IMG/VR virus record: IMGVR_UViG_2802429229_000003
Length of the DNA stretch: 41,511 nt
Strand: one strand, 5' to 3'
From: a virus
Taxonomy: Duplodnaviria > Heunggongvirae > Uroviricota > Caudoviricetes
The notes under the pieces are model-generated. The model searched no databases and was not told where the DNA came from. It was given only the letters and a program-made list of their open reading frames with translations. Positions within the stretch are counted from its first letter, which is position 1; each line of letters opens with the position of its first letter. Both the position numbers and the translations under genes were made by a program. Positions 1-41,511 of this stretch are shown here, one piece after another.

Positions 1-588
1 TTTGTTCTGCAGCTGGTCTGTGGTGCTGTCCGGCGTCATCCTGCGCATCCGGATATTGAACGGGCGCGGCGGCAGGTTATCCACCACCACCGAGGCCAGA
101 TACTGTGAGGTGGTTTTTCCCTTAATGGTGATGTCTTTTTCCGTCACCCAACCACCGTTACGTTGTATCTGAACCAGCAGGCGGACTTCCGACGGATTCC
201 GGTCCCCCTTTGAGGTGGTTTCCACCAGTGCCTGCACGCCGAAAGTAAAACGCAGACGGTCAATGTTTGCCGACGTGATGGTCCGGGTGATCGGCGTGTC
301 ATATTTCACTTCTGTACCGAGCACCGTCTCGGAGCCGGAGGATTCAAATCCCTCCGGCGGTGTCTGCTCCTGCTCACCGGCCCGGAACACCACCGTGACG
401 CCGGAGATGTTGGTATTCCCCTCACTGTCCAGCACTGGCGTACTGTTCAGCAGCACGCTTTTTAATCCATCCACCGGACCTTCAATCGGCCCTTCACTGA
501 TGGCGTCTATCACGCTCAGCATCTGGGATGATTTCAGGTTGTCCTTCGCTTCGCGCGGGGTATGCCCCTTACTGCTGCCTTTACCCAT
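1..588 (-). CDS. J: Tail tip host-specificity protein J, N-terminal part only (truncated by window start)
   Basis: Minus-strand ATG at 588 with GGAG-containing RBS; translation starts MGKGSSKGHTPREAKD, matching my recollection of the lambda J N-terminus. No stop before the window edge. Confidence 0.8.
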   Translation of the reverse strand, partial: MGKGSSKGHTPREAKDNLKSSQMLSVIDAISEGPIEGPVDGLKSVLLNSTPVLDSEGNTNISGVTVVFRAGEQEQTPPEGFESSGSETVLGTEVKYDTPITRTITSANIDRLRFTFGVQALVETTSKGDRNPSEVRLLVQIQRNGGWVTEKDITIKGKTTSQYLASVVVDNLPPRPFNIRMRRMTPDSTTDQLQNK

Positions 589-610
589 TCCTCACGCTCC
601 AGAAACGACA

Positions 611-630
611 AAACCGCCCGCAGGCGGTTT
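611..630 (-). terminator. Terminator-like hairpin between I and J: 8-bp stem AAACCGCC/GGCGGTTT, 4-nt loop, followed on the minus strand by a U-rich tract
   Basis: Inverted repeat read directly; the downstream tract (TGTCGTTTCTGG) is interrupted, so termination efficiency is doubtful. Confidence 0.3.
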
Positions 631-648
631 CACATAAAACGTTTTTCA

Positions 649-1290
649 TCAACGACCAATCACCACAACCTGACCACCATCCCCTTCGTCTGCCGTGCTG
701 ATCTCCTGAGAAACCACGCGTGACCCCACGCTCATTTCACCGTACAGAACCGGCAGAACATTGCCCAGGGCAACCATGTTATCCAGTGAGGAGAAATAGG
801 TGTTCTGTTTGCCGTTATCCGTTGTCTGTGTGCGGGGGGTTTTGGGTTTAGGGGCCAGCATCTGTGCAACACCGCCAAGCGTCATACTGGCACCGAGAGA
901 AAACAGCAGATTACTCGCCATAATTCCTACCCCCGGCATCCATATAGCAACCGCCATAACAGCCGCCCCCAGCACAGCCTGAAACACACCGCCACTTTTG
1001 GCTCCTGCCAGACGCGGCACGATATGGATCACAGCACCATTTGCCAGCGGTTCATTAAGACGGGCTGATAATTCCGTTTCACCTGTATCACGCCCGGCAA
1101 TGCGTACCTGATACCAGCCGTCGCTCAGCTTCTGACGAAACGCCGGGATCTGCATGGCCAGCGCCCGGATGGCTTCGGCCCCCGTTTTCACACGCAGATC
1201 GATGCGGCGGCCAAATCGTTGCAAATCCCCGTAAAGGCAGATGCGTGCCATGCCTGGTGACGCCAGAGGGAGTGTGTGCGTCGCTGCCAT
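649..1290 (-). CDS. I: Tail assembly protein I
   Basis: 213-aa ORF; N-terminus MAATHTLPLASPGMARICLYGDLQRFGRR and C-terminus TADEGDGGQVVVIGR match my recollection of lambda I. Confidence 0.85.
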   Translation of the reverse strand: MAATHTLPLASPGMARICLYGDLQRFGRRIDLRVKTGAEAIRALAMQIPAFRQKLSDGWYQVRIAGRDTGETELSARLNEPLANGAVIHIVPRLAGAKSGGVFQAVLGAAVMAVAIWMPGVGIMASNLLFSLGASMTLGGVAQMLAPKPKTPRTQTTDNGKQNTYFSSLDNMVALGNVLPVLYGEMSVGSRVVSQEISTADEGDGGQVVVIGR

Positions 1291-1931
1291 TTGTCGGTAT
1301 ACCTCTCTCGTTTGCTCAGTTGTTCAGGAATATGGTGCAACAGCTCGCCGTCGCCGCAGTAAATGGCGGCATGATTCGGCACCGATGAACCAAAACAGCA
1401 CAGCAGCACATCGCCCGGCTGCGCCGCTGACAACGGCACCTGATACAGCCCTGTGGCCTCCAGATTATCCAGATAGAGATTCTGACCTGATTTCCACCAG
1501 TCATCATGTCGGTAAAAATCCGGCAAATCGATACCTGCAAGATGATAGGCATCGCGGAACAGCGTATAACAGTCTGTCACCCCGTGCTCAAAACGCCGCC
1601 CGGTGAGATGCGGCACACAGCGGAACTTATGAATCACTCCCCGGCAGACCAGCCACCACGGCAAATCACTCTGCATCTGCAGCCGCCTGTCAGCCTCACT
1701 CAGCCAGGGCAGACCACCGGGGTGGCTGTGGACCAGCGCCACAATCTCACCCTGCATTTCTGCCTGCAGCCAGTCTTCCGGCGACATCCGGAAATACGCC
1801 TCCGGCTCACCGGAGATATTCACACAGGGAAAATATCTTTCCTCCTCCGGCGTGCTTACCACGAAGCCGCACGACTCCGCTGGCGCACATCGCCGGGCGT
1901 GCGCCAGAATCGCTGATTCTGTCTGTGTCAT
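1188..1931 (-). CDS. K: Tail assembly protein K (HSHPGG JAMM/MPN-type motif plus NlpC/P60-like Cys-His region)
   Basis: ORF begins MTQTESAILAHARRCAPAESCGFVV as I recall for lambda K; overlaps the start of I by about 100 nt. True start codon not verified. Confidence 0.75.
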   Translation of the reverse strand: MTQTESAILAHARRCAPAESCGFVVSTPEEERYFPCVNISGEPEAYFRMSPEDWLQAEMQGEIVALVHSHPGGLPWLSEADRRLQMQSDLPWWLVCRGVIHKFRCVPHLTGRRFEHGVTDCYTLFRDAYHLAGIDLPDFYRHDDWWKSGQNLYLDNLEATGLYQVPLSAAQPGDVLLCCFGSSVPNHAAIYCGDGELLHHIPEQLSKRERYTDKWQRRTHSLWRHQAWHASAFTGICNDLAAASICV

Positions 1932-1936
1932 GGGAT

Positions 1937-2635
1937 TTACTGCGAAAGTTTGTTAATGGAAAGGAAGCCGCCAAAGTTGCCGACGTTATTGCGAAACTTA
2001 CAGCCACTCAGGCATTTGCTGCATTTATCCTTCGTGATATCGGACGTCGGCTGGTCATATTCATCCGCGACTGCCGGACCGTGATAACCGCACTCATCGC
2101 CGCGATAGGTCCAGGTGCAGGTGTTGGCCAGCATGATACGTCCCGGAAAAACAGCGCCGTCCGTTTCCGTCGGCGTGGACAGTACAAAAGAGGCACTCAC
2201 CGCGCTCAGTTCGCTGCACTGCTCGATGCGCCAGCGGCTGATCACCTCCTGCTCCGGATCGGCGTCACTGTTTCCGTTGACGAAGTTCACCGCATCCAGA
2301 AAACGGGCGTAAACCTTACGCCGGACCACCGTTCCGCCGACCAGACTCTGCAGGTCTTCCGCCATACCGGTGACCATGCCGTGCAGGTTAGAGACCGTCA
2401 GCGTGGGGCGCGTACTGGTGCCTTTGCCATTCAGTTCAAAACCGCTCCCCTGAATGGGATACGGCTGATACTGTCGCCCCTGCCAGGTGACCGGCTCACC
2501 TTTTTCGTTCTGCTCATTACAGAAAAAATAACGTTCTCCACCGACCTCTGTCAGGTCGATTTCCCAGAGCACCACGCTGGCCGACTGCTCCGCACGAATG
2601 CATTCATTCAGCGTTTCCTGTTGTATGTCCTGCAT
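1937..2635 (-). CDS. L: Minor tail protein L
   Basis: 232-aa ORF, the same length as lambda L, with near-identical recalled sequence ([12 protein letters not shown]...GGFLSINKLSQ). Confidence 0.85.
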   Translation of the reverse strand: MQDIQQETLNECIRAEQSASVVLWEIDLTEVGGERYFFCNEQNEKGEPVTWQGRQYQPYPIQGSGFELNGKGTSTRPTLTVSNLHGMVTGMAEDLQSLVGGTVVRRKVYARFLDAVNFVNGNSDADPEQEVISRWRIEQCSELSAVSASFVLSTPTETDGAVFPGRIMLANTCTWTYRGDECGYHGPAVADEYDQPTSDITKDKCSKCLSGCKFRNNVGNFGGFLSINKLSQ

Positions 2636-2973
2636 CAGATCACCACTTCGTCAAACTGACACGAAAAATCGGTATAGGTGATATGTTCTGTCGCTGACCA
2701 CGTTCGACACACCACTCTGATTTTTCTGTTAATACCCGGCGGGCGCCAAAAAAAAGATTTATAGCCTTCATGCCGGGCTAAAAATTTTTCAAATGAATCA
2801 CGTTCATTCGCCTCAACTTTGAAATCACAGGTGAAAACGCGCAGAGAATGATTAAGTCCATTTGGACTTCGTTGCTCATAACCATCACCAAATCTTACAG
2901 TTTTTATCGATGGTTTATTTTCTGTTTTCATTCCATCCTCTGGTAACCAGTGAAATTCTTCCGTATTAGCCAC
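2635..2973 (-). CDS. M: Minor tail protein M
   Basis: 112-aa ORF between the tape measure gene and L with motif [10 protein letters not shown] as in lambda M; start overlaps the tape measure stop. Confidence 0.75.
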
Positions 2974-5900
2974 TTAACATTCCCCCATCACGTCGCATAT
3001 TTAACAGATTGCCCTGCACCCGCTGATCAACCATCCCCATAAGTGCTTTTATTGCCTGAGGGCCAATCTCTCCATTCTGGCCGTCATTTTGAATAGTGAT
3101 TTGGTATACAGGGGCATAGGTAATATCTCCGCCTCCATTACCACTTTTACTATTAATAGCTCTGACACCAAGAGAACCATCGGAAGTTCGTGTTAATGGC
3201 ATAATGGCTTCCGGTCCAGCCTCACCAAAAACACCAGCCCCTTTTGCAAAAGCAAAAAATTGCGGGGAATCATAAATACCGTTCGAATACGTGCTCAATG
3301 ACGGAGACTCATAAACACCGCCCTTTGCATTCGGAATAAATTTACTAATAGCACTCCCGATAGTTCCTAAAATCCCCCCAGAAGAACTGTTACTAATGCT
3401 GTCGAAAATCCCAGTAATTGAAGCCTTTAATGCTATTCGACTAAGATCCGAAATCACGGAAGTAGCGAAAGAACGAAAATTTGCCTTGCCTGTCGTGACA
3501 AAATCACCCAGCGCATCGGTCATTCCATCAAACATCTGAGTCGTGGTTGATTTTATCTGCTCACTGATATCCTTAGTGTCATCCAGCCAGTTATTGAATC
3601 CCTGGGAGGCACCACTAACCCAGTCTCCTGCCTGAATATCGAGCTGCTCGTTTTTCTGTCTGACAATTTCTTTTTCCCGTTCCAGAGCATCATTCAGAGC
3701 CTGCATTTTCTCTTGAAAAACATGATCTGACATTCCACGGGATTTATCTGCATAGTCACGTTCAAGTTGCAGACGCTGATTGTTATATCCATGTTCAATC
3801 CGCAGTAATTCCTGCTGGCGTTGCTGATTTTTATCGCCAACCCCATAACCAGCAATCTGAATATCATACCCCTGCTGACGATTATCAATCGAAGCCTGCA
3901 ATGAATCACGCCATGCTGTTATTTCGGCGGATTCCTTGATTAGCCTGTTATTTTTTTCAATCGCAACATTTTTCTCCATCAACGTGGTTATTTCTTCCCG
4001 GTGTAAGAGAAGCGATTTCTGATCCTGGGTTAATTTCGATGATGGTCGTGACTCTAGGTCGGCAATCCGCTGACGCCACTTAACCAGTTCCTGTTCAGAG
4101 GAACTTAATTTAACGGTCAACTCAGCTTGTGAACTTAGTAACGCATTCTGTTGATTCAGATGATCAATCATTCGTTGGGCTGCATCATCAGAATAATCTT
4201 TCGCCTTTGGTTGCTTTGGATCTTTATAACGCTCATTTATTTGAGCGATAAGATTATTATATTCTTCCTTTGAATACTGATTCTTTAGCTTTTCCAGTTT
4301 TGCAAGTTCACTAGCTCTCTGCTGCTCCCGGGTCTGATATTGTTTTGAAAAGGCATCTGCTCTCTGTCTGAGTTCAATTCCTTCCTGTTGTCGCTTGTTG
4401 TAATCGTTTATTGATGAATTTAGTACGTCCTGAGCAATTTTTTCTGCTTGAAGTACGCCCAATTGCTGCTTTAATCGTGCCAGCCTTTTATTTTGAGCTC
4501 CGCCATCTCCAATGCCACCTAACCCGAAAACTCCGGGTCGGGTATTTTTTTCTATTTCATCAATTTGACGGAGAACATCTGAGATTTTTTGATCAAGGGA
4601 GGCCTCACGGCCAATATCCAGCATGGAATCCCATGCCCATTTTGCGGAGTCTGCGACAGCTTTCCATGCAGTCTCAAGATAACCAAGATTTTCTTTAATC
4701 TGGTTGGTGCGCTGGATCATTGAGGATGAGTATTCTTCTGTCGCAATGCGGGCGGCCTCCTGCTGGTTCCCTTCATCCTGTAGCGCCTTAATCTGGTTAT
4801 AAGTCGCAAGTGTCAGAAAATGGTACTGATCATTAAGTTTTGATATGGCACTGACAGGATCCTTTGCAATTTCATTGAAGTCATTAACCAGTTGTTCGGT
4901 TGATATTCCTGTTACTTCGCTCGTTTTTACTATCGCTGTCGTCACTTGCTCCAGCGAACTGCTCGCTACCTTTCCCGAACGCACAAGCTGATTTAATACT
5001 GCCGCCGCAGCACCAGTTGTCGAATCAGCCGCATTCCCGGCACGTTGAGCTATATCGCCCAATTGCCCGCTGGTTGTCCCCAACTGATTTCCGGTAAGAA
5101 TAAGAGATTTATTAAATTCGTCCTGCTCCTGAGAGCCTTTATAGTAAGCCAGTCCTAAGACCCCAACGGCTGCTGCGGCCAGGGTAAAAGGATTAATTAA
5201 TCCCAGCACATAAGAACCTACACCTTTGATCGCCGGGCCAATCCCACCGAACATATCTTTTAGCTGGCCGCCCTGCTGCATTAACACCATAAATGGCGAC
5301 TGACCAGTGGACAACCCAACAACAATATCCGTCATTTGTGCAGGCAACATGCGCATAGCAAAAGCCGTTTGTTTTGCCGACATTCCGGTTTTGCTTAATT
5401 GTGATTGAGTAACCTCAAGCTCACTCCGCATAGCACGAAGTTTTCCAGAAAGCTCCTCATACATTTCAGGAGAAAGCATCCCCTTAGCTTTTGCTTCATT
5501 GAGCTGTTTCTGTTGTTCTACCAGACGATTAAAAGCAGTTCCGACAGGATCAAGTTGAGCAATCAGACGTTGCAAAGCAACAACCTGTTCATCATGCGCT
5601 TTTGCTGCTTCTCGCTCTGCCTGAGCCTCTCCAGTAAGCTCTCGCCGTGTTTCCTGTATTTTTCGGCTATAATTCTCAAACTGAGAACCATTTATTTTCC
5701 CGGATGCAAACGCAGCATTAAGTTCATCATGCTGTTGTTCAAGATTTCTTAGCGCCGCAGCCAGAGGGTCGATCTTGTCCAGCATTCTTTGAAAGGCCTG
5801 AGCCTGCGCTTCCTGCTGGGCGGCAGCAAGTTTTCCGGCCTTCTCGGCTTCTCTCTGCGCTTGCGCAACCCCGCTCAATTCCTCTGTGGTTTCATTAAGT

Positions 5901-6199
5901 TTACGGACAAGAAATTCATATTCTTCTTTATCAATAAGCCCTTTATCGAAAAATTTCTTTAATTCAGAATAGCGTCGACCGACAGTATCAATTGCGGCAC
6001 CAACTGGATCAATAGCTGCTTTTAATTTTGCGAGCGCGTTCTTCTCATCTTCTGTTGCCTTAGTCACTTTCCCTGCGCTATTTGCAGCAGTTTCCCCAGC
6101 CTGCGTCATTTTGACTAATGAGGAGGTCAGATTGTCAGCATTATTTTTCGCTCCAGTGCTATCAATAATTATTGCGAGACGCGAGGTTTGCTCTGCCAT
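2966..6199 (-). CDS. Tail tape measure protein (H-position), 1077 aa
   Basis: Very long coiled-coil-rich ORF between the G/T chaperone genes and M; AGGAG RBS before ATG at 6199 (MAEQTS). Longer than the 853 aa I recall for lambda H. Confidence 0.85.
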
Positions 6200-6215
6200 T
6201 TATTAAAACTCCTGA

Positions 6216-6248
6216 CAACAAAAAACCCACCGCGAAGTGGGTTTCAGG
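6216..6248 (-). terminator. Intrinsic-terminator-like hairpin about 17 nt upstream of the tape measure start
   Basis: Minus strand reads AAACCCAC-UUCGCG-GUGGGUUU followed by UUUGUUG; lies inside the 165-nt gap between the GT stop (6365) and the tape measure start. Confidence 0.4.
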
Positions 6249-6364
6249 CGACATAATAGTAGATATAGCGATTACGAGGCCACGCAATGCTTTTCTCCAG
6301 GAGCATCATCGATTTAATTAAAGACACCATCACATCTCTGTAACAGAGTGTACGTAATTAACAA

Positions 6365-6685
6365 CTACACACACTGCTCCTGAAAATACTGGTCATCCAG
6401 TGCAAAGATCACTGCTTCAAATTCATCGCGCTCAATCAATACCGGATGAGTGGCTAAATATTCATTTATCTCTGTCAGAGATAAAGGCAAAGGCACCCCA
6501 GCCATTCCAGCATAACGTCGGGCACGGGATATTACCGAATAGGCGTACAACAACTCCTTAAGCACCGGGTCTATTTCTGGTTCCGGTATCGGTGGCAACC
6601 TGAGTTTTTCTCGCTTCCATCTTGCCTTTTCCCCCCTTTCTCCCCCGAACTCCGATAACCACCGCTGGGCAGCTATGGCTTTTTT
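6365..6685 (-). CDS. Tail assembly chaperone GT, -1 frameshift extension (T part); fusion product continues from G
   Basis: The -1 frame entered at the slippery heptamer stays open to a stop at 6365 and is the frame of the 6365-6598 ORF; no stop codon between the slip site and that ORF. Confidence 0.6.
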   Translation of the reverse strand, partial: KKAIAAQRWLSEFGGERGEKARWKREKLRLPPIPEPEIDPVLKELLYAYSVISRARRYAGMAGVPLPLSLTEINEYLATHPVLIERDEFEAVIFALDDQYFQEQCV

Positions 6686-7134
6686 ATCGTATCCTGCTTC
6701 TGCTGCTCTTTACCCTGGGCGATGCTGGCTGCTTCTGCAAGGATCTGCCAGTACAAATCTGGATTCTGCTTAAGCAGCGCGATCCCTCGTTCTGCCGTAT
6801 ATTCCAGTGCAACCTCAACACCATTAACCAGTTCACCAACCCCTTTCCAGTCTTTCAGCAGATAACGAGCGGCATTATCAATGAGTAAATCATCAACAGA
6901 ATCCACCTCGGAAACCTTTGAAATATCAAACTCCTTCGTTCCGACGTGCAAACTGGCATCCATTTTCTCAATGTGGCGACGGATTAATGCATTACGGGAG
7001 CGATACTGATCGTTATCGCTGCTTGCCACCAACAGTTTTAACCCGTCTACAGGTTTTAAGTCCTTCATTGGCGTAAACCAGCGTTCTCCACCAATGAGAA
7101 TTTTCTGATTAAGAATAAACATCCATAACCTCAT
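6673..7134 (-). CDS. Tail assembly chaperone G (zero-frame product)
   Basis: 153-aa ORF immediately upstream of the tape measure region; ends ...IKKP-stop directly after the slippery heptamer; RBS-like GAGG before ATG at 7122 or 7134. Confidence 0.65.
   Translation of the reverse strand: MRLWMFILNQKILIGGERWFTPMKDLKPVDGLKLLVASSDNDQYRSRNALIRRHIEKMDASLHVGTKEFDISKVSEVDSVDDLLIDNAARYLLKDWKGVGELVNGVEVALEYTAERGIALLKQNPDLYWQILAEAASIAQGKEQQKQDTIKKP
6679..6685 (-). other. Programmed -1 ribosomal frameshift slippery heptamer A-AAA-AAG
   Basis: Minus-strand codons AUA AAA AAG CCA UAG; heptamer A_AAA_AAG three codons before the G stop, the conserved position for tail chaperone frameshifting. Confidence 0.6.
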
Positions 7135-7182
7135 TCAATGCGTCCCCCTGTAGGGCAGTACCACAGGAGGAATAACGGAAAA

Positions 7183-8145
7183 TCAACTAATCGCCTCAGC
7201 ACTGGCTTTTGCGATCACGGCAGCCGGGGAATTTTTTTTTCTGGTTATCGTAGGTGCTTCATCTGCTGCGGTAATGCTCAATTGAACCTGGATAATGTCG
7301 CTATTACCCCCATCAGGCCATTCACCTGACACCTGAACCTTCGGGAAACTGAAAGTGTATGCCCCCTCTCCATTCGAAAGCGTGAAGCTGAACGGAACTG
7401 TTTCTCCAGTCAGTGTTTTACTCCAGATTTCCCACGCGGCTTTAGACCATGAAAGCGTCACCGTACCGGACGGTGTAAAAGTAGTCGGAATATTTGCTCC
7501 TGCATAAGGCGAGCCAGTCCCGATACAACGCTGTGTCTGGAGTTTGTTATCGAACTGAATATCAAAACTGTCGATACAAAAACCGTTACCTCCGGCAACA
7601 CCATTCAGGCTTACTGCTGAAACCTCCTTAAACGAATAACGTAGCTTTCCTGCACTATCCACAGGTTCGCCTTTGATAAAATTCGTATCATCGGCCTTTG
7701 ATTCCCAGTCCAGTCCGGCAAAGGTTACGGTCGCTGTAATATCGCCGTCGTTAGGGATCTGCATTTTCCATGAGCCAACCTGCGCTCCTCTGACGACAGA
7801 GGCAATTCCGACATCGGACGCATAGGTCGCCAGAGAAAATGTTATTCGCTCATTCCCCATTGTCAGAGAATCGCCTGACCATTCCGCGCCGAAACAGGAT
7901 GCAAGAAAATCATCATGTTGACCCCAGCGAAATTTGGTACCAACATCACCGCCGACATCCACAGTGCCAGGCGTCGCCCCCTGAGCCATCCGGGAGCCAC
8001 CAATCTCATTATTTTCGCCTTTATTCTGGGTGGGTTTTACTCCCCAGCTTGTGCGTTTTAATAAACTCCAGTCACCACTTGCTGGCGTAGTGCCTGCAAC
8101 CGTCTCCCGGATAAATGCCGAGATAACCTTTGCACCTGAACTCAC
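7183..8145 (-). CDS. Major tail protein (V-position), 320 aa
   Basis: GTG start at 8145 preceded by UAGGAGG RBS; lies between the U-position gene and G. Assignment is by position and size; sequence is not lambda V as I recall it. Confidence 0.6.
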   Translation of the reverse strand: MSSGAKVISAFIRETVAGTTPASGDWSLLKRTSWGVKPTQNKGENNEIGGSRMAQGATPGTVDVGGDVGTKFRWGQHDDFLASCFGAEWSGDSLTMGNERITFSLATYASDVGIASVVRGAQVGSWKMQIPNDGDITATVTFAGLDWESKADDTNFIKGEPVDSAGKLRYSFKEVSAVSLNGVAGGNGFCIDSFDIQFDNKLQTQRCIGTGSPYAGANIPTTFTPSGTVTLSWSKAAWEIWSKTLTGETVPFSFTLSNGEGAYTFSFPKVQVSGEWPDGGNSDIIQVQLSITAADEAPTITRKKNSPAAVIAKASAEAIS

Positions 8146-8171
8146 AGGAGCCTCCTATGTCATTAATTGCG

Positions 8172-18975: not shown

Positions 18976-20433
18976 TTAGGAGCGCCAAAAAAAACCTGAA
19001 AACAATATAATAACAGGATAAATTTCAAGGCGACCAAGAATCATAGCTATGCACATTAAACATTTTGCAATGTCATTAAGTACTCCGAATGACGATGCAG
19101 TAGCCCCAAAACCTAATCCCATATTATTAATACATGCAGCCACTGTTGCAAATGATGTAAGAAAATCATATCCCATACCATTTAACACCAGTATAAAAAA
19201 CACCGTAAAGAGAGTATAAAGAAAAAAGAAACTCCATACAGACCTCATTACACGATCTGTAACTATCTTCCCTCCTACATTTACACTCAACAACGCTCTG
19301 GGATGAGAAAGCTGATTTATCTCGTGTTTGCTTTGTTTGAAAAGTATAAGAAATCGAAGTGACTTAATTCCACCACAAGTTGAACCTATACATCCCCCAA
19401 AGAAACTTGACAACAGCAAAAATACTATCGTGTGCGTGGGCCAACTTGCATAATCCTGCGTAGCTAAACCATTATCAGTGAGCATGGAGCTGGCAAGAAA
19501 AAACGAATGAATAAAACTTCCATGCAAGTCATACATACCTATATGCCAGACCTGGAAAGAGGTAACAATGATCACCCCTAAGGCTATTAACAGAAAGAAA
19601 CGAAGTTCAATATCTCTGATTAAAGGTTTTATCGTTTTCCTGCTAATAACAATATACCAAAGAGTGAAGTTGAAAGCCGATAGCAGGGAAAAAGAACCAG
19701 CCACCAGCTCAACCAAATAGTTATTAAAATATCCGATACTCTCGCTATGAGTTGAGAAACCACCAAGCGAAACTGTGGAAATCCCGTGACAAATAGCATC
19801 AAACAAAGGCATTCCTGCAAGTCTATAACAGACAATACAAGCAATACCTAATAAAGAATAAGTTATCCACAGTGTCCGTGACGTATCGGCCAGGCGGGGA
19901 GTGAGTTTGTCATCCTTAAATGGCCCCGGCATTTCTGACTGATAAAGCTTTGCACCACCAATACCCAATAATGGCAATACAGCAACCGCCAGAACAATAA
20001 CTCCTAAACCACCTATAAAATTTAACTGTGACCGATAGTACAAATATGCCCGAGGTAATGAACTAACATCATCAATTACAGTTGCTCCTGTTGTTGTTAT
20101 TCCAGAAACCCCTTCAAACAGAGCATCAATGAACGTTAAATTAAGTTCTGAGTCAATCCATAAAGGGAATGCACTAATAACAGAAAACAAAATCCAAAAC
20201 ATTACAATTATAATAAACCCATCACGGGTACGTAATTGAATGCCAGATTTCTTAGTTGTATACCACGCTCCGCCACCAATGCAAAAAAATATAACGAAAG
20301 TTATAAAGAAAACGAACAGGCTTTTTTCTTTATAAAACAATGCTACAACCATTGGTGGCAACATTGAAAGACTATAGAGCCAAACCAGGAACCCACACAT
20401 ATGAGTAACAACTCTTACATGAGATGTATTCAT
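18976..20433 (-). CDS. trkG: Trk system potassium uptake protein TrkG (Rac prophage moron), 485 aa
   Basis: Polytopic membrane protein with repeated GGxK and Gly-rich pore-loop motifs; sequence from MNTSHVRVVTHMCGF matches my recollection of TrkG. AT-rich relative to flanking phage genes. Confidence 0.85.
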   Translation of the reverse strand: MNTSHVRVVTHMCGFLVWLYSLSMLPPMVVALFYKEKSLFVFFITFVIFFCIGGGAWYTTKKSGIQLRTRDGFIIIVMFWILFSVISAFPLWIDSELNLTFIDALFEGVSGITTTGATVIDDVSSLPRAYLYYRSQLNFIGGLGVIVLAVAVLPLLGIGGAKLYQSEMPGPFKDDKLTPRLADTSRTLWITYSLLGIACIVCYRLAGMPLFDAICHGISTVSLGGFSTHSESIGYFNNYLVELVAGSFSLLSAFNFTLWYIVISRKTIKPLIRDIELRFFLLIALGVIIVTSFQVWHIGMYDLHGSFIHSFFLASSMLTDNGLATQDYASWPTHTIVFLLLSSFFGGCIGSTCGGIKSLRFLILFKQSKHEINQLSHPRALLSVNVGGKIVTDRVMRSVWSFFFLYTLFTVFFILVLNGMGYDFLTSFATVAACINNMGLGFGATASSFGVLNDIAKCLMCIAMILGRLEIYPVIILFSGFFWRS

Positions 20434-33744: not shown

Positions 33745-33818
33745 ACCAGCATAAATCCGGTAGCGTCCCCCTCCGGGTTTGTGCTTCACTTTATCCCATC
33801 TCATTTTTTTACACACAA

Positions 33819-33866
33819 AATGTACTTAAAGTACTTTACACAATGAACACAAAGTACATTATATAC
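33819..33866 (+). promoter_or_regulatory. Candidate early-left promoter with operator copies (AGTACAT motif x3 and GTACTTAAAGTAC palindrome)
   Basis: ATGTACTT, AAGTACTTT and AAGTACATT within 45 bp; -35-like TTTACA (33835-33840) and -10-like ATTATA / TATATA 17-19 nt downstream. Confidence 0.4.
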
Positions 33867-34033
33867 CTACCAACCCACCCCGCCCCACAGAACGCAGGGC
33901 AATACTTCGAGTTACCAGGCAGTGGTCAGGGGTTAAGTAGCCAGCCCGAGGCGTATGAACATGACGGCAGGGTTCAGATTTTGCAGTGCAGCAGGTTTCA
34001 GTTCCGCCACCCGGCGTTAAGGGGAGAGATAAG

Positions 34034-34168
34034 ATGGTGCATTACGAAGTAGTTCAGTATTTGATGGATTGTTGCGGTATCACTTACAACCAGGCTGTGC
34101 AGGCTTTACGCAGCAACGACTGGGATCTCTGGCAGGCAGAAGTCGCTATACACAGCAACAAGATGTGA
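34034..34168 (+). CDS. ydaG: YdaG-like small protein, 44 aa
   Basis: ATG at 34034 after GGGGAGAG RBS; MVHYEVVQYLMDCCGITYNQAVQALRSNDWDLWQAEVAIHSNKM; same length as Rac YdaG as recalled. Confidence 0.55.
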   Translation: MVHYEVVQYLMDCCGITYNQAVQALRSNDWDLWQAEVAIHSNKM

Positions 34169-34178
34169 GATTCGCAAA

Positions 34179-34334
34179 ATGCAAAAAATCGACCTCGGCA
34201 ACAACGAATCCCTGGTGTGCGGCGTGTTCCCCAACCAGGATGGAACGTTCACTGCCATGACGTATACCAAAAGCAAAACATTTAAAACCGAAACTGGTGC
34301 GCGCCGATGGTTGGAGAAGCATACAGTAAGCTAA
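34179..34334 (+). CDS. ydaF: YdaF-like small protein, 51 aa
   Basis: ATG at 34179; MQKIDLGNNESLVCGVFPNQDGTFTAMTYTKSKTFKTETGARRWLEKHTVS. Below the ORF track cutoff. Confidence 0.5.
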   Translation: MQKIDLGNNESLVCGVFPNQDGTFTAMTYTKSKTFKTETGARRWLEKHTVS

Positions 34335-34819
34335 CGATTAAAACGTCTACTCCTGCTGTTCCAGAATAACTTCATAAAATGGGAGTATTTTTCGGTGACG
34401 AGATAATAAGAACAGTTTGCGCTATCACTCTGATGTTGAATGATGCCCTTCCGTTCTAATTTTTTCATAACCGGGTTACGGCAAGGAGAAGTGATAATAA
34501 GATTTCCTGTTTTAAGGAAATCTTTAAATACAGCGATTTCTTTCTCAGATAAACGAAGCAATACTCGTTGCTCTGGTAGTAATGAATAATGCTTTTGAAT
34601 ATGTGCTCGCAATCTTGAGAAGGAAATGGCGACCACGAAAGAAAAGGCAAAAACGATAATCTGAAAGAGCCAAGGTATTTCAGTATAAGCATTGAATGCG
34701 ACAGTAAACTCTTTCGGTATCAGCCAGAGAGTGAGACCAAAAATGATAATCGTATACATAAGTATTTCGAGTGGCTCGTTAGCAAAAAGTTTCAACAATG
34801 GAGTAAATACATCCAACAT
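34331..34819 (-). CDS. sieB: Superinfection exclusion protein SieB, 162 aa
   Basis: ATG at 34819 (MLDVFTPLLKLFANEPLEILMYTIIIFGLTLWLI...); two N-terminal hydrophobic helices; length matches Rac SieB. Confidence 0.8.
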   Translation of the reverse strand: MLDVFTPLLKLFANEPLEILMYTIIIFGLTLWLIPKEFTVAFNAYTEIPWLFQIIVFAFSFVVAISFSRLRAHIQKHYSLLPEQRVLLRLSEKEIAVFKDFLKTGNLIITSPCRNPVMKKLERKGIIQHQSDSANCSYYLVTEKYSHFMKLFWNSRSRRFNR

Positions 34820-35037
34820 ATCAATAACTCTCAACTGTAAGGGTATTGAAATGTTAACACAAGCTCTCGCTGTAGGGGTATAGCCGAGACCACCGAAGCC
34901 CGGAGGTGGTGAAATAAAACCGGGCACAACACGAAGGCGCATTTCCGATATCCATAAAGAGTCGGTCTTGTCTGTTAAATTTAAATGGTGGGAGTGCGCC
35001 TCCGGTTGTAAATAACGACATTGCTGTGTGTAGTCCT

Positions 35038-35085
35038 GGCGGCATCAGTTTTTTTCTTGAAGTTCGGCTGATGTCCGCCCTTTTT
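35038..35085 (+). terminator. Plus-strand terminator-like hairpin between sieB and kilR (11-bp bulged stem, 19-nt loop, then CUUUUU)
   Basis: GGCGGCATCAG (35038-35048) pairs with CTGATGTCCGCC (35068-35079) with one bulged T; followed by C plus T5. Confidence 0.35.
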
Positions 35086-35260
35086 AAAGTGAATTTTGTG
35101 ATGCGGTGAATGCGGCTAAGCGCACGTGGCACAGTTAAAAGTCATGTTAGTCCTTATTGGTTTGGGTGGGAAAGCCGACTGTAATTGTTAACTGGTTGCA
35201 GTCACCTGGAGGCACCAGGCACCGCATCAACAAAGTTCATTTGTAAAAATGGAGATAATT

Positions 35261-35482
35261 ATGATTGCACATCACTTCGGAACTGATGAAATACCACGTC
35301 AGTGTGTGACTCCTGGCGATTATGTTCTTCATGAAGGCCGGACATATATTGCCTCGGCAAACAATATTAAAAAGCGAAAACTATATATTCGTAACCTGAC
35401 CACAAAAACATGCATTACTGACCGCATGATTAAAGTCTTCCTCGGTCGTGATGGTTTACCTGTAAAGGCGGAGTCATGGTGA
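35261..35482 (+). CDS. kilR: KilR, Rac prophage killing protein (FtsZ inhibitor), 73 aa
   Basis: ATG at 35261 after GGAGA RBS; [42 protein letters not shown]... matches KilR as recalled. Confidence 0.8.
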
Positions 35483-35652
35483 TGACTAAGAAAATAAAAT
35501 GTGCTTACCACCTTTGCAAAAAAGACGTTGAAGAAAGCAAAGCTATTGAAAGAATGCTTCACTTCATGCACGGGATTTTATCAAAAGACGAACCGAGAAA
35601 ATATTGCAGTGAAGCTTGTGCCGAAAAAGACCAGATGGCACATGAACTTTAA
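35482..35652 (+). CDS. ydaE: YdaE-like Cys-rich small protein, 56 aa
   Basis: ATG overlapping the kilR stop (TGATG); [56 protein letters not shown]. Confidence 0.65.
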   Translation: MTKKIKCAYHLCKKDVEESKAIERMLHFMHGILSKDEPRKYCSEACAEKDQMAHEL

Positions 35653-35726
35653 TTAATTGACTATTCGAAACTGAATTTATGCCAGAAATGGCAGGTATTC
35701 GCTCAACCTTAATTAAGGAGAAAAAC

Positions 35727-36002
35727 ATGATTACCAATTATGAAGCCACTGTTGTAACTACCGATGACATTGTTCACGAGGTGAATCTGGAAGGAAAGCG
35801 CATTGGCTACGTAATTAAAACAGAAAATAAAGAAACCCCATTCACTGTGGTTGATATCGATGGTCCATCAGGCAACGTAAAAACACTTGATGAAGGTGTC
35901 AAAAAAATGTGCCTGGTGCATATCGGAAAGAATCTGCCCGCAGAAAAAAAAGCCGAATTTCTGGCAACTCTAATTGCAATGAAATTAAAAGGTGAAATCT
36001 GA
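35727..36002 (+). CDS. racC: RacC-like protein, 91 aa
   Basis: ATG at 35727 after AAGGAG RBS; directly upstream of recE. Confidence 0.65.
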   Translation: MITNYEATVVTTDDIVHEVNLEGKRIGYVIKTENKETPFTVVDIDGPSGNVKTLDEGVKKMCLVHIGKNLPAEKKAEFLATLIAMKLKGEI

Positions 36003-36007
36003 AAGAA

Positions 36008-36032
36008 ATAGCCTGCGTATGGCGCAGGCTAT
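36008..36032 (+). other. Perfect 10-bp inverted repeat hairpin (ATAGCCTGCG / CGCAGGCTAT, 5-nt loop) between racC and recE
   Basis: Read directly; begins 6 nt after the racC stop; no U-tract follows on the plus strand. Confidence 0.5.
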
Positions 36033-36103
36033 GAACAGTGTGTATCCGGCAAGATCATTCACTGAACAAAACGAATTTTAATCTGAGTTGAGGTTAAAAA
36101 ACA

Positions 36104-38725
36104 ATGAGCACAAAACCACTCTTCCTGTTACGGAAAGCGAAAAAATCATCCGGTGAACCTGACGTCGTCCTGTGGGCAAGCAACGATTTTGAATCGACCT
36201 GTGCCACTCTGGACTACCTGATCGTTAAGTCAGGTAAAAAACTGAGCAGCTATTTTAAAGCTGTTGCCACGAATTTTCCTGTCGTTAATGACCTGCCCGC
36301 TGAAGGTGAGATCGATTTTACCTGGAGTGAACGCTATCAACTCAGCAAAGACTCCATGACATGGGAACTAAAACCGGGAGCAGCACCAGACAACGCTCAC
36401 TATCAAGGCAATACCAACGTCAACGGCGAAGACATGACTGAGATTGAGGAGAATATGCTACTCCCAATTTCTGGCCAGGAACTGCCCATTCGTTGGCTTG
36501 CTCAACACGGCAGCGAAAAACCGGTAACGCACGTTTCACGCGACGGACTCCAGGCATTACACATTGCTCGGGCTGAAGAACTACCGGCTGTTACTGCCCT
36601 GGCTGTTTCCCACAAAACCAGCCTGCTCGACCCGCTGGAAATTCGCGAACTCCACAAACTGGTTCGTGACACTGACAAAGTTTTCCCTAATCCTGGTAAT
36701 TCAAACCTGGGACTGATAACTGCTTTTTTCGAAGCATACCTGAACGCTGACTACACCGATCGAGGACTGCTGACAAAAGAGTGGATGAAGGGTAATCGTG
36801 TTTCACACATCACTCGCACGGCTTCCGGTGCTAATGCTGGCGGCGGAAACCTCACCGATCGCGGCGAAGGTTTCGTACACGATCTGACGTCACTGGCGCG
36901 CGACGTAGCCACTGGCGTACTGGCCCGTTCAATGGATCTGGACATCTATAACCTTCATCCGGCACACGCTAAACGCATTGAGGAAATTATCGCTGAAAAT
37001 AAACCGCCCTTTTCTGTTTTCCGCGACAAATTCATCACCATGCCTGGCGGGCTGGATTATTCCCGCGCCATCGTGGTTGCGTCCGTAAAAGAAGCACCAA
37101 TTGGGATCGAGGTCATCCCCGCGCACGTCACTGAATATCTGAACAAAGTACTGACTGAAACCGATCATGCCAACCCTGATCCGGAAATCGTGGATATTGC
37201 CTGCGGTCGCTCCTCTGCCCCGATGCCGCAGCGAGTAACAGAAGAAGGAAAACAGGATGATGAAGAAAAACCGCAACCATCTGGAACAACGGCAGTTGAA
37301 CAGGGAGAGGCTGAAACAATGGAACCGGACGCAACTGAACATCATCAGGACACGCAGCCGCTGGATGCTCAGTCACAGGTAAATTCTGTTGATGCGAAAT
37401 ATCAGGAACTGCGGGCAGAACTCCATGAAGCCCGGAAAAACATTCCATCAAAAAATCCTGTCGATGACGATAAATTGCTTGCTGCATCACGTGGTGAATT
37501 TGTTGACGGAATTAGCGACCCGAACAATCCGAAATGGGTTAAGGGGATCCAGACTCGCGATTCTGTGTACCAGAACCAGCCAGAAACGGAACAAAACACG
37601 CCAGAAACGGAAAAAACCAGCCCGGATGTGAAACAACCTGAGCCAGTAGTGCAACAGGAACCGGAAATAGTCTGCAATGCCTGCGGTCAGACTGGCGGGG
37701 ATAACTGCCCTGACTGTGGTGCGGTGATGGGCGACGCAACATACCAGGAAACATTCGATGAAGAGAATCAGGTTGAAGCTAAGGAAAATGATCCGGAGGA
37801 AATGGAAGGCGCTGAACATCCGCACAATGAGAATGCAGGCAGCGATCCGCATCACGATTGCAGTGATGAAACTGGCGAAGTCGCAGATCCCGTAATCGTA
37901 GAAGACATAGAGCCAGGTATTTATTACGGAATTTCGAATGAGAATTACCACGCGGGTCCCGGTGTCAGTAAGTCTCAGCTCGACGACATTGCTGATACTC
38001 CGGCACTGTATTTGTGGCGTAAAAATGCCCCCGTGGACACCACAAAGACAAAAACGCTCGATTTAGGAACCGCTTTCCACTGCCGGGTACTTGAACCGGA
38101 AGAATTCAGTAACCGCTTTATCGTAGCACCTGAATTTAACCGCCGTACAAACGCCGGAAAAGAAGAAGAGAAAGCGTTTCTGATGGAATGCGCAAGCACA
38201 GGAAAAACGGTTATCACTGCGGAAGAAGGCTGGAAAATTGAACTCATGTATCAAAGCGTTATGGCTTTGCCGCTGGGGCAATGGCTTGTTGAAAGCGCCG
38301 GACACGCTGAATCATCAATTTACTGGGAAGATCCTGAAACAGGAATTTTGTGTCGGTGCCGTCCGGACAAAATTATCCCTGAATTTCACTGGATTATGGA
38401 CGTGAAAACTACGGCGGATATTCAACGATTCAAAACCGCTTATTACGACTACCGCTATCACGTTCAGGATGCATTCTACAGTGACGGTTATGAAGCACAG
38501 TTTGGAGTGCAGCCAACTTTCGTTTTTCTGGTTGCCAGCACAACTATTGAATGCGGACGTTATCCGGTTGAAATTTTCATGATGGGCGAAGAAGCAAAAC
38601 TGGCAGGTCAACAGGAATATCACCGCAATCTGCGAACCCTGTCTGACTGCCTGAATACCGATGAATGGCCAGCTATTAAGACATTATCACTGCCCCGCTG
38701 GGCTAAGGAATATGCAAATGACTAA
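36104..38725 (+). CDS. recE: Exodeoxyribonuclease VIII (RecE), 873 aa
   Basis: Long ORF with acidic low-complexity middle region; C-terminal nuclease region matches RecE as recalled; stop overlaps the recT start. Confidence 0.85.
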
Positions 38726-39527
38726 GCAACCACCAATCGCAAAAGCCGATCTGCAAAAAACTCAGGGAAACCGTGCACCAGCAGCAGTTAAAAATAGCGA
38801 CGTGATTAGTTTTATTAACCAGCCATCAATGAAAGAGCAACTGGCAGCAGCTCTTCCACGCCATATGACGGCTGAACGTATGATCCGTATCGCCACCACA
38901 GAAATTCGTAAAGTTCCGGCGTTAGGAAACTGTGACACTATGAGTTTTGTCAGTGCGATCGTACAGTGTTCACAGCTCGGACTTGAGCCAGGTAGCGCCC
39001 TCGGTCATGCATATTTACTGCCTTTTGGTAATAAAAACGAAAAGAGCGGTAAAAAGAACGTTCAGCTAATCATTGGCTATCGCGGCATGATTGATCTGGC
39101 TCGCCGTTCTGGTCAAATCGCCAGCCTGTCAGCCCGTGTTGTCCGTGAAGGTGACGAGTTTAGCTTCGAATTTGGCCTTGATGAAAAGTTAATACACCGC
39201 CCGGGAGAAAACGAAGATGCCCCGGTTACCCACGTCTATGCTGTCGCAAGACTGAAAGACGGAGGTACTCAGTTTGAAGTTATGACGCGCAAACAGATTG
39301 AGCTGGTGCGCAGCCTGAGTAAAGCTGGTAATAACGGGCCGTGGGTAACTCACTGGGAAGAAATGGCAAAGAAAACGGCTATTCGTCGCCTGTTCAAATA
39401 TTTGCCCGTATCAATTGAGATCCAGCGTGCAGTATCAATGGATGAAAAGGAACCACTGACAATCGATCCTGCAGATTCCTCTGTATTAACCGGGGAATAC
39501 AGTGTAATCGATAATTCAGAGGAATAA
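38718..39527 (+). CDS. recT: Recombinase RecT (single-strand annealing protein), 269 aa
   Basis: ATG at 38718 overlapping the recE stop; [47 protein letters not shown]... matches RecT as recalled. Confidence 0.85.
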
Positions 39528-39583
39528 TTCAGCCTGGCGGTGTAATGCACCGCCAACTTGAAATATTTTTTATGAGAAAAATT

Positions 39584-39778
39584 ATGAGATATGACAATGT
39601 TAAACCATGTCCATTTTGTGGTTGTCCATCAGTAACGGTGAAAGCCATTTCAGGATATTACCGAGCGAAGTGTAACGGATGCGAATCCCGAACCGGTTAT
39701 GGTGGAAGTGAAAAAGAAGCACTCGAAAGATGGAATAAACGAACCACTGGAAATAATAATGGAGGTGTTCATGTATAA
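39584..39778 (+). CDS. ralR: Restriction alleviation protein Lar (RalR), 64 aa
   Basis: MRYDNVKPCPFCGCPSVTVKAISGYYRAKCNGCESRTGYGGSEKEALERWNKR; zinc-ribbon CxxC...CxxC. Confidence 0.7.
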   Translation: MRYDNVKPCPFCGCPSVTVKAISGYYRAKCNGCESRTGYGGSEKEALERWNKRTTGNNNGGVHV

Positions 39779-39980
39779 AATTACCGCCACTATTGAAAAG
39801 GAAGGTGGCACTCCTACTAACTGGACAAGATATTCAAAATCTAAACTAACGAAATCAGAATGCGAAAAAATGCTCTCAGGTAAAAAAGAAGCAGGCGTTT
39901 CCAGAGAGCAGAAAGTAAAACTGATAAATTTTAATTGCGAGAAACTTCAGTCCTCGAGAATTGCATTGTATTCAAATTAA
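39771..39980 (+). CDS. ydaC: YdaC-like protein, 69 aa
   Basis: ATG at 39771 overlapping the lar stop; MYKITATIEKEGGTPTNWTRYSKSKLTKSECEKMLSGKKEAGVSREQKVKL... Confidence 0.6.
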   Translation: MYKITATIEKEGGTPTNWTRYSKSKLTKSECEKMLSGKKEAGVSREQKVKLINFNCEKLQSSRIALYSN

Positions 39981-39991
39981 AACTTCATAGC

Positions 39992-40007
39992 TGATTATTA
40001 ATAATCA
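39992..40007. repeat. Perfect 16-bp AT-rich palindrome TGATTATTAATAATCA between ydaC and xis
   Basis: Sequence equals its own reverse complement; 52 nt upstream of the xis ATG. Confidence 0.6.
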
Positions 40008-40058
40008 ACATCGGGCGTCAATTTCAGTCTAACATTGGCGCCTGCCAGAGGTGATGCG

Positions 40059-40274
40059 ATGGCACAAGTAATCTTTAATGAAGAGTGGATGGTTGAATAC
40101 GGCCTGATGCTTCGCACTGGTCTGGGGGCCAGACAAATTGAAGCATACCGCCAGAACTGTTGGGTGGAGGGCTTCCACTTCAAACGAGTATCTCCTTTAG
40201 GTAAGCCAGACAGCAAACGAGGGATTATCTGGTACAACTATCCAAAGATAAATCAGTTTATCAAAGACTCATGA
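40059..40274 (+). CDS. xisR: Excisionase (XisR / YdaQ-like), 71 aa
   Basis: ATG at 40059 after AGAGGUGA RBS; small basic protein immediately upstream of and coupled to int (stop and start 1 nt apart). Confidence 0.65.
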
Positions 40275-40275
40275 T

Positions 40276-41511
40276 ATGTCTAAATTACCAACAGGTGTCG
40301 AGATTAGAGGTAGATACATTCGCATCTGGTTCATGTTTCGAGGAAAACGATGTCGGGAAACATTAAAAGGCTGGGAGATTACAAACAGTAATATTAAAAA
40401 GGCCGGAAATTTAAGAGCGCTGATAGTTCATGAAATAAACTCCGGTGAATTTGAGTATTTAAGACGTTTTCCCCAGTCCAGCACTGGGCCAAAAATGGTG
40501 ACAACGAGAGTCATAAAAACGTTCGGAGAGCTTTGTGATATCTGGACAAAAATTAAAGAGACAGAGTTAACAACAAACACAATGAAGAAAACGAAATCAC
40601 AATTAAAAACACTCAGAATAATAATTTGTGAAAGTACCCCGATATCACATATTCGTTATAGCGATATCTTAAACTACCGGAATGAACTGCTGCATGGAGA
40701 AACGCTTTACCTGGATAATCCAAGATCCAACAAAAAAGGAAGAACCGTGCGCACAGTTGATAACTATATCGCCCTGCTCTGTTCGCTGTTGCGTTTTGCG
40801 TATCAGTCGGGATTTATATCAACCAAACCATTTGAAGGAGTAAAAAAATTACAGCGAAACAGAATAAAGCCTGATCCGTTATCTAAAACAGAATTCAATG
40901 CATTAATGGAAAGTGAAAAAGGACAGAGCCAGAACTTGTGGAAATTTGCCGTTTACTCAGGACTTCGTCACGGGGAACTGGCAGCTCTGGCGTGGGAGGA
41001 TGTGGATCTCGAAAAGGGAATAGTGAATGTCAGAAGAAACCTGACGATACTTGATATGTTCGGTCCCCCAAAAACAAATGCCGGGATCCGAACAGTAACA
41101 CTACTGCAGCCTGCTCTTGAAGCACTGAAGGAGCAATACAAACTGACCGGGCATCATCGCAAAAGCGAAATCACCTTTTATCATCGGGAGTACGGCAGAA
41201 CCGAAAAGCAAAAACTGCATTTTGTTTTCATGCCCAGGGTGTGTAACGGAAAACAAAAACCTTATTACTCGGTAAGCAGTTTGGGGGCAAGGTGGAATGC
41301 AGCAGTAAAACGTGCTGGTATTCGCCGCCGTAATCCGTACCATACGCGACATACTTTTGCCTGCTGGCTGTTGACGGCAGGAGCGAACCCGGCATTTATA
41401 GCCAGCCAAATGGGGCATGAAACTGCGCAGATGGTGTATGAAATTTACGGTATGTGGATTGATGACATGAACGACGAACAGATAGCCATGTTGAATGCGC
41501 GGTTATCGTAG
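40276..41511 (+). CDS. intR: Tyrosine integrase (IntR-like), 411 aa
   Basis: C-terminal catalytic region with R...HxxR...Y (NPYHTRHTFACWLLTAG...QMGHETAQMVYEIYGMWI); stop at the last base of the window. Confidence 0.85.
   Translation: MSKLPTGVEIRGRYIRIWFMFRGKRCRETLKGWEITNSNIKKAGNLRALIVHEINSGEFEYLRRFPQSSTGPKMVTTRVIKTFGELCDIWTKIKETELTTNTMKKTKSQLKTLRIIICESTPISHIRYSDILNYRNELLHGETLYLDNPRSNKKGRTVRTVDNYIALLCSLLRFAYQSGFISTKPFEGVKKLQRNRIKPDPLSKTEFNALMESEKGQSQNLWKFAVYSGLRHGELAALAWEDVDLEKGIVNVRRNLTILDMFGPPKTNAGIRTVTLLQPALEALKEQYKLTGHHRKSEITFYHREYGRTEKQKLHFVFMPRVCNGKQKPYYSVSSLGARWNAAVKRAGIRRRNPYHTRHTFACWLLTAGANPAFIASQMGHETAQMVYEIYGMWIDDMNDEQIAMLNARLS

Follow-up and report, generated by a model that had tools for sequence, protein, structure and literature searches.

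The Rac prophage is incomplete in Escherichia coli K-12 and intact in EDL933, and according to a 2019 review it is present in 69% of 638 strains (PMC6379469). A Rac-like relative has been studied alive: KingRac, a 46,834-bp lambdoid prophage at ttcA in a mouse-gut E. coli, was called complete (Frazao et al. 2019, PNAS; PMC6731689). It is weakly inducible by mitomycin, forms tailed particles, lysogenises K-12 and, in the mouse gut, took the place of the Rac prophage of K-12 (PMC6731689). Here we analyzed a 41,511-nucleotide (nt) stretch of DNA, the Caudoviricetes record IMGVR_UViG_2802429229_000003 (hereafter the window), which is apparently most of a full-length, undamaged version of the Rac prophage that remains in K-12 as a remnant. 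The window very likely covers some 41.5 kb of a temperate lambdoid siphovirus prophage that is full-length and belongs to the Rac lineage; the element could excise, package its DNA and lyse its host if the distal tail genes and attachment (att) sites are present beyond the window edges.

The window extends from the stop codon of the integrase gene, which forms its final base, to the start of the tail-tip gene J. Genes on the minus strand occupy a long stretch (1-33317); beyond it lies a plus-strand arm whose last gene encodes a 411-amino-acid (aa) integrase. The modules are arranged in a lambda-like order: int/xis; recET and early-left cargo; a switch composed of a DicA-like repressor, a Cro-like protein and CII-like YdaT; YdaU/YdaV replication genes; NinB-like and Q-like late control; holin, endolysin, Rz and Rz1; terminase, portal and P22-type capsid; and a lambda-like tail with a G/GT frameshift. 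About 50 bp separate the int stop codon from the start of ttcA in K-12 and strain 1-62, and in close relatives the same int-side genes adjoin ttcA. Overall G+C content is 45.7%, with low pockets at trkG (37.9%), sieB (37.0%), an open reading frame (ORF) for a 189-aa membrane protein (38.9%) and a 3.6-kb ORF for a nucleoside triphosphatase (NTPase; 32.7%). We found no tRNA or tmRNA genes in the window, and an Rfam scan of it at the gathering threshold returned RalA and sok and nothing else.

An earlier note on this DNA, made from its letters alone, had taken it for an intact relative of K-12 Rac, subject to essential genes proving free of lesions that could not be seen by eye. Reference proteins from three strains (37 PGAP proteins from E275a, 14 from 1-62 and 23 from K-12) were placed on the window with tblastn. 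More than 50 of these matched window ORFs end to end, with no gaps, stops or frameshifts; the exception was RecE, which carries a 7-aa in-frame insertion relative to K-12. No inactivating lesion was found in any window gene. The terminase, portal, capsid, connector, tube, frameshift chaperone, tape measure and tip genes are full-length and stop-free, and the holin, endolysin, Rz/Rz1, Q-like, ydaU/ydaV and int/xis genes are likewise full-length. The lysis cassette is intact as claimed, with a lambda-S-family holin, an endolysin and an Rz gene with Rz1 nested in it. The complete terminase-to-tail set of the earlier note held from the small terminase to the tail-tip genes and failed at the left edge, where J is cut at residue 196 of about 1132 and lom, the side tail fibre gene and tfa lie outside.

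PHROG and Pfam searches identified the morphogenesis set as a small terminase, a Terminase_6-type large terminase, portal, Mu-F-like minor head, scaffold-like and P22-type coat proteins, Ad1, Hc1, Neck1, tail terminator, tube, chaperone, tape measure, M, L, K and I. Between 7183 and 9900 the connector and tail genes, all full-length, matched PHROGs with E values of 1e-28 to 1e-112. From the terminase and capsid types, packaging is probably by the headful. The tail-chaperone frameshift is conserved among long-tailed phages, and in the window a slippery heptamer, A_AAA_AAG in X_XXY_YYZ register, lies at 6685-6679 on the minus strand at the end of the G-like gene, past which the -1 frame stays open to 6365. 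By sequence, K-12 ydaY is a gpG-like tail assembly chaperone gene, and K-12 retains the whole G/GT unit minus its first three codons.

Several points weigh against an active, complete prophage. Most of J, all of lom, stf and tfa, and both att sites lie outside the window, so completeness cannot be shown from it. Intact ORFs are compatible with missense or regulatory defects. No LexA-type cleavage domain was found in the 139-aa repressor (HTH_3 only) and no antirepressor was seen in the window, and the SOS route to induction is therefore unclear. The comparison with KingRac, whose deposit consists of Sequence Read Archive reads, is by description only. Finally, a search for genomes that carry this structural module and derive from virions gave none; the "phage" records that match it are predicted prophages. 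As evidence of viability we rejected both the ON470xxx "phages", which are PHASTER predictions, and "Salmonella phage SPF_0923", a chromosomal fragment with host uspF, ompN and sitABCD.

These points leave room for a cryptic element, grounded despite its intact ORFs by lesions beyond the window or by regulatory or missense changes and retained for its cargo only. The edges of the window fall inside J and at the int stop codon, which fits this reading, but the near-identical E275a prophage has full-length J followed by a Lom-family gene, a tail fibre gene of 3 kb and tfaR. Single lesions are frequent in other Rac-like copies: strain 700462 has a frameshift in recT, and the GDSC2BY4G copy has both an IS3 in the Q gene and an internal stop in int. 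An intact copy is therefore not a given. Against this, more than 50 genes over 41.5 kb free of frameshifts and stops would be unlikely after long neutral decay, and the programmed frameshift site is preserved. The absence of an autocleavage domain from the repressor and the weak induction of KingRac itself also fit a cryptic state. On balance we consider it unlikely, and we favor a full-length prophage. Inducibility of the window element is plausible, because KingRac at ttcA is weakly inducible, forms particles and lysogenises K-12. Given the unseen distal tail genes and att sites, the element could excise, replicate, package its DNA and lyse its host.

Whole-window alignment to K-12 Rac, which the earlier note had proposed, gave the picture it predicted. 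We used blastn against MG1655 1408000-1436000, within which K-12 Rac occupies NC_000913.3, 1411899-1434958. The match consists of four collinear blocks of 98.4-99.8% identity, split by large K-12 deletions. K-12 Rac shares with the window, in the same order, int/xis, rcbA, ralR/RalA, recT, recE, racC, ydaE, kilR, sieB, ydaF/G, ydaT/U/V, rzoR and trkG, with proteins 96-100% identical. The int-xis-ralR-recTE-kilR-sieB arm and the ydaTUV and trkG segments are thus collinear with K-12 Rac; another mark of the lineage, the RacR/YdaS immunity pair, is absent from the window. Proteins of the ydaG-racC region (34034..36002) are 97.7-100% identical to those of K-12. The RecE insertion falls at window position 37592, and substitutions relative to K-12 cluster between 37526 and 38395.

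The earlier note had stated that K-12 Rac lacks most morphogenesis genes, and exactly those regions are deleted in the alignment. K-12 lacks window positions 1-5264, a stretch that encodes the tail tip and the last 765 residues of the tape measure; this third deletion starts inside the tape measure gene and extends beyond the left edge of the window to lomR, which in K-12 is interrupted by IS5. It also lacks 7025-18584, which holds the tail tube, connectors, capsid, scaffold, portal, both terminase subunits, a glycosyltransferase and most of a ParB-like gene. The deletion of 21016-30476 removes the Rz N-terminus, endolysin, holin, membrane protein, Q-like, DUF1364 and DUF1367 genes, as well as hok, the NTPase gene, DUF977 and the C-terminus of the DUF1627 protein. 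In addition, window positions 33001-33867, with the DicA-like repressor/cro pair, are swapped for racR-ydaS in K-12.

The edges of these deletions are informative. The junctions 7024/7025, 18584/18585, 21015/21016 and 30476/30477 all lie within genes, and K-12 retains a stump at each deletion edge. K-12 ynaA corresponds to tape measure residues 1-312, ynaK to residues 1-86 of the 263-aa ParB-like protein and rzpR to the C-terminus of Rz. K-12 ydaY is a near-complete gpG-like chaperone gene whose first three codons have been exchanged for ynaK-derived sequence, and ydaW is chimeric, joining DUF1627 residues 1-151 to 37 codons of Rz-region sequence translated out of context. Both internal junctions share only 2 nt of microhomology (TT and TA), indicating that the two internal deletions were illegitimate; for the same reason we rejected deletion through long repeats. 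Collectively, these stumps, intragenic junctions and 2-nt microhomologies show, at the level of sequence, that K-12 Rac descends from a window-like element by three large deletions and an exchange of repressor and cro. The converse history, in which an unrelated lambdoid phage supplied structural and lysis modules that K-12 Rac never had, could appeal to lambdoid mosaicism, to the replaced immunity region, to a mosaic right half (among 5,426 complete E. coli genomes the best cover 81% of it in one place and none reaches 82%) and to the phage record Rac-SA53, which shares 42% of the right half and only part of the early region, but it is contradicted by the junction analysis and is most improbable, as the K-12 stumps (tape measure N-terminus, G/T chaperone, ynaK N-terminus, Rz C-terminus with Rz1, and ydaW N-terminus) are 99.7-99.8% identical to the window on both sides of each deletion.

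Full-length Rac relatives are widespread. At least 80% of window 1-21000 is held in one place by 688 of the 5,426 complete genomes, whereas junctions of the K-12 type are found in no more than 348 and 335 of them. The prophage of E275a (NZ_CP035865.1) is 99.3% identical over 1-24782 with the same gene calls, and differs in having racR/ydaS and a SIR2/deaminase cargo. Strain 1-62 (NZ_CM131229.1) carries an NTPase 99.9% identical to that of the window and the same int-side genes next to ttcA, but has a LexA-family repressor and a replisome-organizer replication module. KingRac, by its published description, resembles the window as a full-length Rac-related lambdoid prophage. In relatives, the iron/manganese transporter operon sitABCD lies directly past the tail-fibre end, between tfaR and uspF.

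In the immunity region, tblastn with RacR and YdaS gave no match in the window. Its repressor/cro module recurs in 1047 complete E. coli genomes; Escherichia phage Tritos, whose gene set is Qin/DLP12-like, has it as well. The ydaT that adjoins this DicA-like module is the K-12 Rac allele. Although the earlier note had listed ydaT among exclusion and conversion genes, it encodes a CII-like regulator of the immunity region: the protein matches a CII-like activator PHROG, and experiments have established YdaT as a CII-like transcription factor (PMC11879457). On these two grounds we rejected the label "YdaT toxin".

The genes named as cargo in the earlier note (sieB, lar, kilR, ydaT, hok, trkG, the NTPase and the membrane protein) are all present and full-length. 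As a distinguishing trait, however, this dense set is weakened by K-12 Rac itself, which also has sieB, ralR, kilR and trkG; the proteins of sieB, kilR, ralR, rcbA and trkG are 98.6-100% identical between the two. Two gene pairs have the composition of type I toxin-antitoxin systems, a hok ORF with a sok-type RNA and a RalR ORF with antisense RalA. In a lysogen, SieB and the Tmn-like NTPase described below would exclude phages, Hok/Sok and RalR/RalA could act as addiction or stress toxins alongside KilR, and TrkG would take up potassium.

What the earlier note had called an uncharacterised KAP NTPase is a member of the YobI/Tmn anti-phage family. Published work describes Tmn as a single-gene anti-phage defence (PMC11846954; PMC13001434), for which Gao et al. 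2020 are credited in PMC11846954. In the 1210-aa window protein, PF20693 covers 363 of 363 positions (E=1.7e-122), and the PADLOC Tmn model matches with E=2e-66, chiefly over the N-terminal 440 residues; no NCBIfam model matched. Walker A (GQYSAGKS) lies at residues 42-49 and Walker B (AIVFED) at 240-245, and between them hydrophobic 19-mers mark transmembrane helices at 125-143 and 174-192. The protein thus resembles Tmn in its YobI-type P-loop, the two helices between Walker A and B, a long C-terminal region and its organization as a single-gene unit. It differs in length (1210 versus about 1270 aa), in being prophage-borne and in its 32.7% G+C content. Compared with E. coli F-plasmid Tmn it is about 25-28% identical, with no detectable similarity past about residue 612; BLASTP against WP_286005026 ("anti-phage transmembrane ATPase") gave 25% identity over residues 4-612 (E=1e-53). 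Tmn is characterized by an alpha-helical solenoid C-terminal sensor, and the C-terminal 600 residues of the window protein have no sequence match to plasmid Tmn. We conclude that the NTPase is a distant member of the known Tmn family with a predicted role in defence. Its gene is present in 32 of the 5,426 complete genomes, always on the chromosome, in 31 at 99% identity or more and in one at 95.6%. Among plasmid records the closest full-length relative is from Fusobacterium vincentii (35.7%). This relative and the G+C content of 32.7% versus 45.7% for the window suggest recent import of the gene from a low-G+C donor.

The NTPase gene sits in a slot (window 24421-29732) between the NinB-like gene with hok and DUF977. 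Other Rac-like prophages have Menshen NsnABC here, or an OLD-type ATPase-nuclease with a Dcm methylase, or a set of SIR2, nucleoside triphosphate pyrophosphatase and adenosine deaminase. Because other strains carry other defence systems at this position, the slot is, judged by gene content, a defence hotspot of Rac-like prophages.

The 189-aa protein, which the earlier note had called a membrane moron, has two strongly hydrophobic segments, and terminator-like hairpins at 22886-22911 and 21956-21977 flank its gene. Its family is restricted to Enterobacterales and comprises about 100 clusters, nearly all of exactly 189 aa. In relatives the gene always lies between the Q antiterminator, of three different Q families, and the holin. 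The Q-holin slot is the position of the stx genes in Stx phages. No Pfam family or NCBIfam model matched the protein. Its AlphaFold model (pLDDT 80) has three long helices, and a fold search against the PDB gave generic helical-bundle matches only (best E=0.14).

Just upstream of the small terminase gene, a ParB-like gene and a "TAGT" glycosyltransferase gene overlap by 8 nt and match phrog_842/620. The TAGT family comprises at least 8000 clusters and has an invariant DDD motif, at residues 102-104 of the window protein; its model matches GT-A glycosyltransferases. A PDB sequence search with the window protein returned no match, and no NCBIfam model was found. Its Pfam family, PF20691, also contains the enzyme of T2/T6 that attaches a second glucose to glucosyl-hydroxymethylcytosine (hmC) DNA (PMC13216743). 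Both genes are conserved in Lactobacillus phage phi jlb1, in Nocardia phage NTR1 and in HHTV-2, a haloarchaeal virus, at 43-47% identity for TAGT and 31-40% for the ParB-like partner, C-terminal domain included. In a Vibrio phage, that C-terminal domain alone forms a separate ORF beside the glycosyltransferase gene. The pair lies directly upstream of terminase genes in 6 of 8 contexts, and these terminases fall into four Pfam types. No hydroxymethylase or TET/JBP enzyme is encoded in the window, and our literature search found no paper on the pair. Tentatively, the pair might be an uncharacterised, widespread, packaging-linked phage module, of which ynaK is the stump, that may add sugar to phage DNA, to a virion protein or to a packaging protein by a route independent of hmC and TET/JBP.

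Table 1 Features of the window, alignment blocks to K-12 Rac and corresponding loci in relatives. Positions are in the window unless another record is named.
Feature	Position	Strand	Basis
Tail-tip protein J, N-terminal 196 residues, cut by edge	1..588	-	tblastn with E275a gpJ (1132 aa), 99.5%
Tail-tip assembly gene I	649-1224	-	Full-length gapless match to E275a; phrog_32
Tail-tip gene K/C40 peptidase	1188-1931	-	Full-length gapless match to E275a PGAP protein
Tail-tip gene L	1937-2635	-	Full-length gapless match to E275a PGAP protein
Tail-tip gene M	2635-2973	-	Full-length gapless match to E275a PGAP protein
Tape measure protein, 1077 aa	2966..6199	-	Full-length homology match
Tail assembly chaperone pair	6365..7032	-	phrog_313
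T-part ORF, 77 aa, reached by -1 slip	to 6365	-	Open -1 frame
G-like chaperone gene (K-12 "ydaY")	6673-7032	-	phrog_313
Tail tube	7183-8145	-	PHROG; Phage_tube_2
Tail terminator	8172-8564	-	PHROG
Neck1/tail completion	8561-8941	-	PHROG
Head closure Hc1	8942-9325	-	PHROG
Head-tail adaptor Ad1	9325-9720	-	PHROG
58-aa ORF	9724-9900	-	Full-length
P22-type major capsid protein	9943-11082	-	PHROG/Pfam
Scaffold-like DUF6651 protein	11181-11945	-	PHROG/Pfam
Mu-F-like minor head protein	12050-13162	-	PHROG/Pfam
Portal	13146-14552	-	PHROG/Pfam, full-length
Large terminase, Terminase_6N/6C domains	14555-15856	-	PHROG/Pfam, full-length
Small terminase	15837-16931	-	PHROG/Pfam, full-length
69-aa ORF	16935-17144	-	ORF
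GT-A "TAGT" glycosyltransferase, 310 aa	17122-18054	-	PF20691 E=3.8e-35; GT-A fold matches
ParB_N + conserved C-terminal domain protein, 263 aa	18047-18838	-	ParB_N
trkG potassium transporter	18976..20433	-	100% identical to K-12 TrkG
Rz	20571-21035	-	Pfam Phage_lysis
Rz1, nested in Rz	20630-20815	-	Pfam Rz1; 100% identical to K-12 RzoR
Endolysin	21032-21508	-	phrog_90
Lambda-S-family holin, begins Met-Lys-Met	21512-21853	-	Pfam Phage_holin_3_1
189-aa helical membrane protein	22201-22770	-	Hydrophobic segments; phrog_11870, function unknown
Q-like antiterminator DUF1133	22992-23534	-	Homology, PHROG
DUF1364/HNH-like protein	23531-23821	-	Homology, PHROG
NinB-like DUF1367 protein	23821-24420	-	Homology, PHROG
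hok, HokD-like toxin, 51 aa	24890-25045	-	PF01848 HOK_GEF E=1.6e-23
sok-family RNA	25040-25214	-	RF01794, 111 bits vs gathering score 59
Terminator-like hairpin of NTPase gene	25650-25672	-	Hairpin
YobI/Tmn-family transmembrane P-loop NTPase, 1210 aa	25694-29326	-	PF20693, PADLOC Tmn
DUF977 protein	29733-30149	-	Homology/Pfam
Full-length DUF1627 protein/ydaW	30165-30926	-	Homology/Pfam
DnaC/IstB-like ydaV	30949-31695	-	Homology/Pfam
Replication initiator ydaU	31702-32559	-	Homology/Pfam
CII-like regulator ydaT	32572-32994	-	CII-like activator PHROG
Cro-like helix-turn-helix (HTH) protein	32991-33245	-	HTH match
DicA-like repressor, 139 aa, without peptidase domain	33325-33744	+	HTH_3; sub-threshold DicA-family match
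ydaG	34034-34168	+	K-12 protein match
ydaF	34179-34334	+	K-12 protein match
sieB	34331-34819	-	SieB Pfam; K-12 protein match
kilS small RNA	34988-35085	+	By alignment
kilR	35261-35482	+	K-12 protein match
ydaE	35482-35652	+	K-12 protein match
racC	35727-36002	+	K-12 protein match
recE, 21-nt in-frame insertion vs K-12	36104-38725	+	Homology
recT	38718-39527	+	Homology
ralR (lar)	39584-39778	+	100% identical to K-12 RalR; PF14354
rcbA	39771-39980	+	Homology
RalA small RNA, antisense	39777-39955	-	RF02694, 225 bits vs gathering score 170
Excisionase xisR	40059-40274	+	100% identical to K-12 XisR
Integrase intR	40276-41511	+	99.8% identical to K-12 IntR; integrase domains
Alignment block to K-12 Rac	5265-7024		99.8%
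Alignment block to K-12 Rac	18585-21015		99.8%
Alignment block to K-12 Rac	30477-33000		98.4%
Alignment block to K-12 Rac	33868-41511		99.3%
sitABCD in relatives	E275a 3190-6639; locus L020 28143-31592
NTPase slot in relatives	E275a 38421-43636; locus L018 3421-8063; locus L019 4682-8374
ParB-TAGT pair in relatives	L006 2696-4358; L007 2774-4349; L009 3-1720; L010 3229-4894

As a discovery the finding matters little: that full-length Rac relatives at ttcA are common in E. coli, one of them documented as active, is correct but already known. Its useful output is interpretive. The comparison yields base-exact junctions for both internal deletions of K-12 Rac and reveals several K-12 "genes" (ynaK, ydaW, ynaA and rzpR) as deletion stumps or chimeras. 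It also assigns a distant Tmn-family NTPase to a prophage site that, in other strains, is occupied by other defence systems. Finally, the ParB-TAGT pair and the conserved membrane protein between Q and holin could merit experiments, carried as they are by a very common, genetically tractable E. coli prophage.

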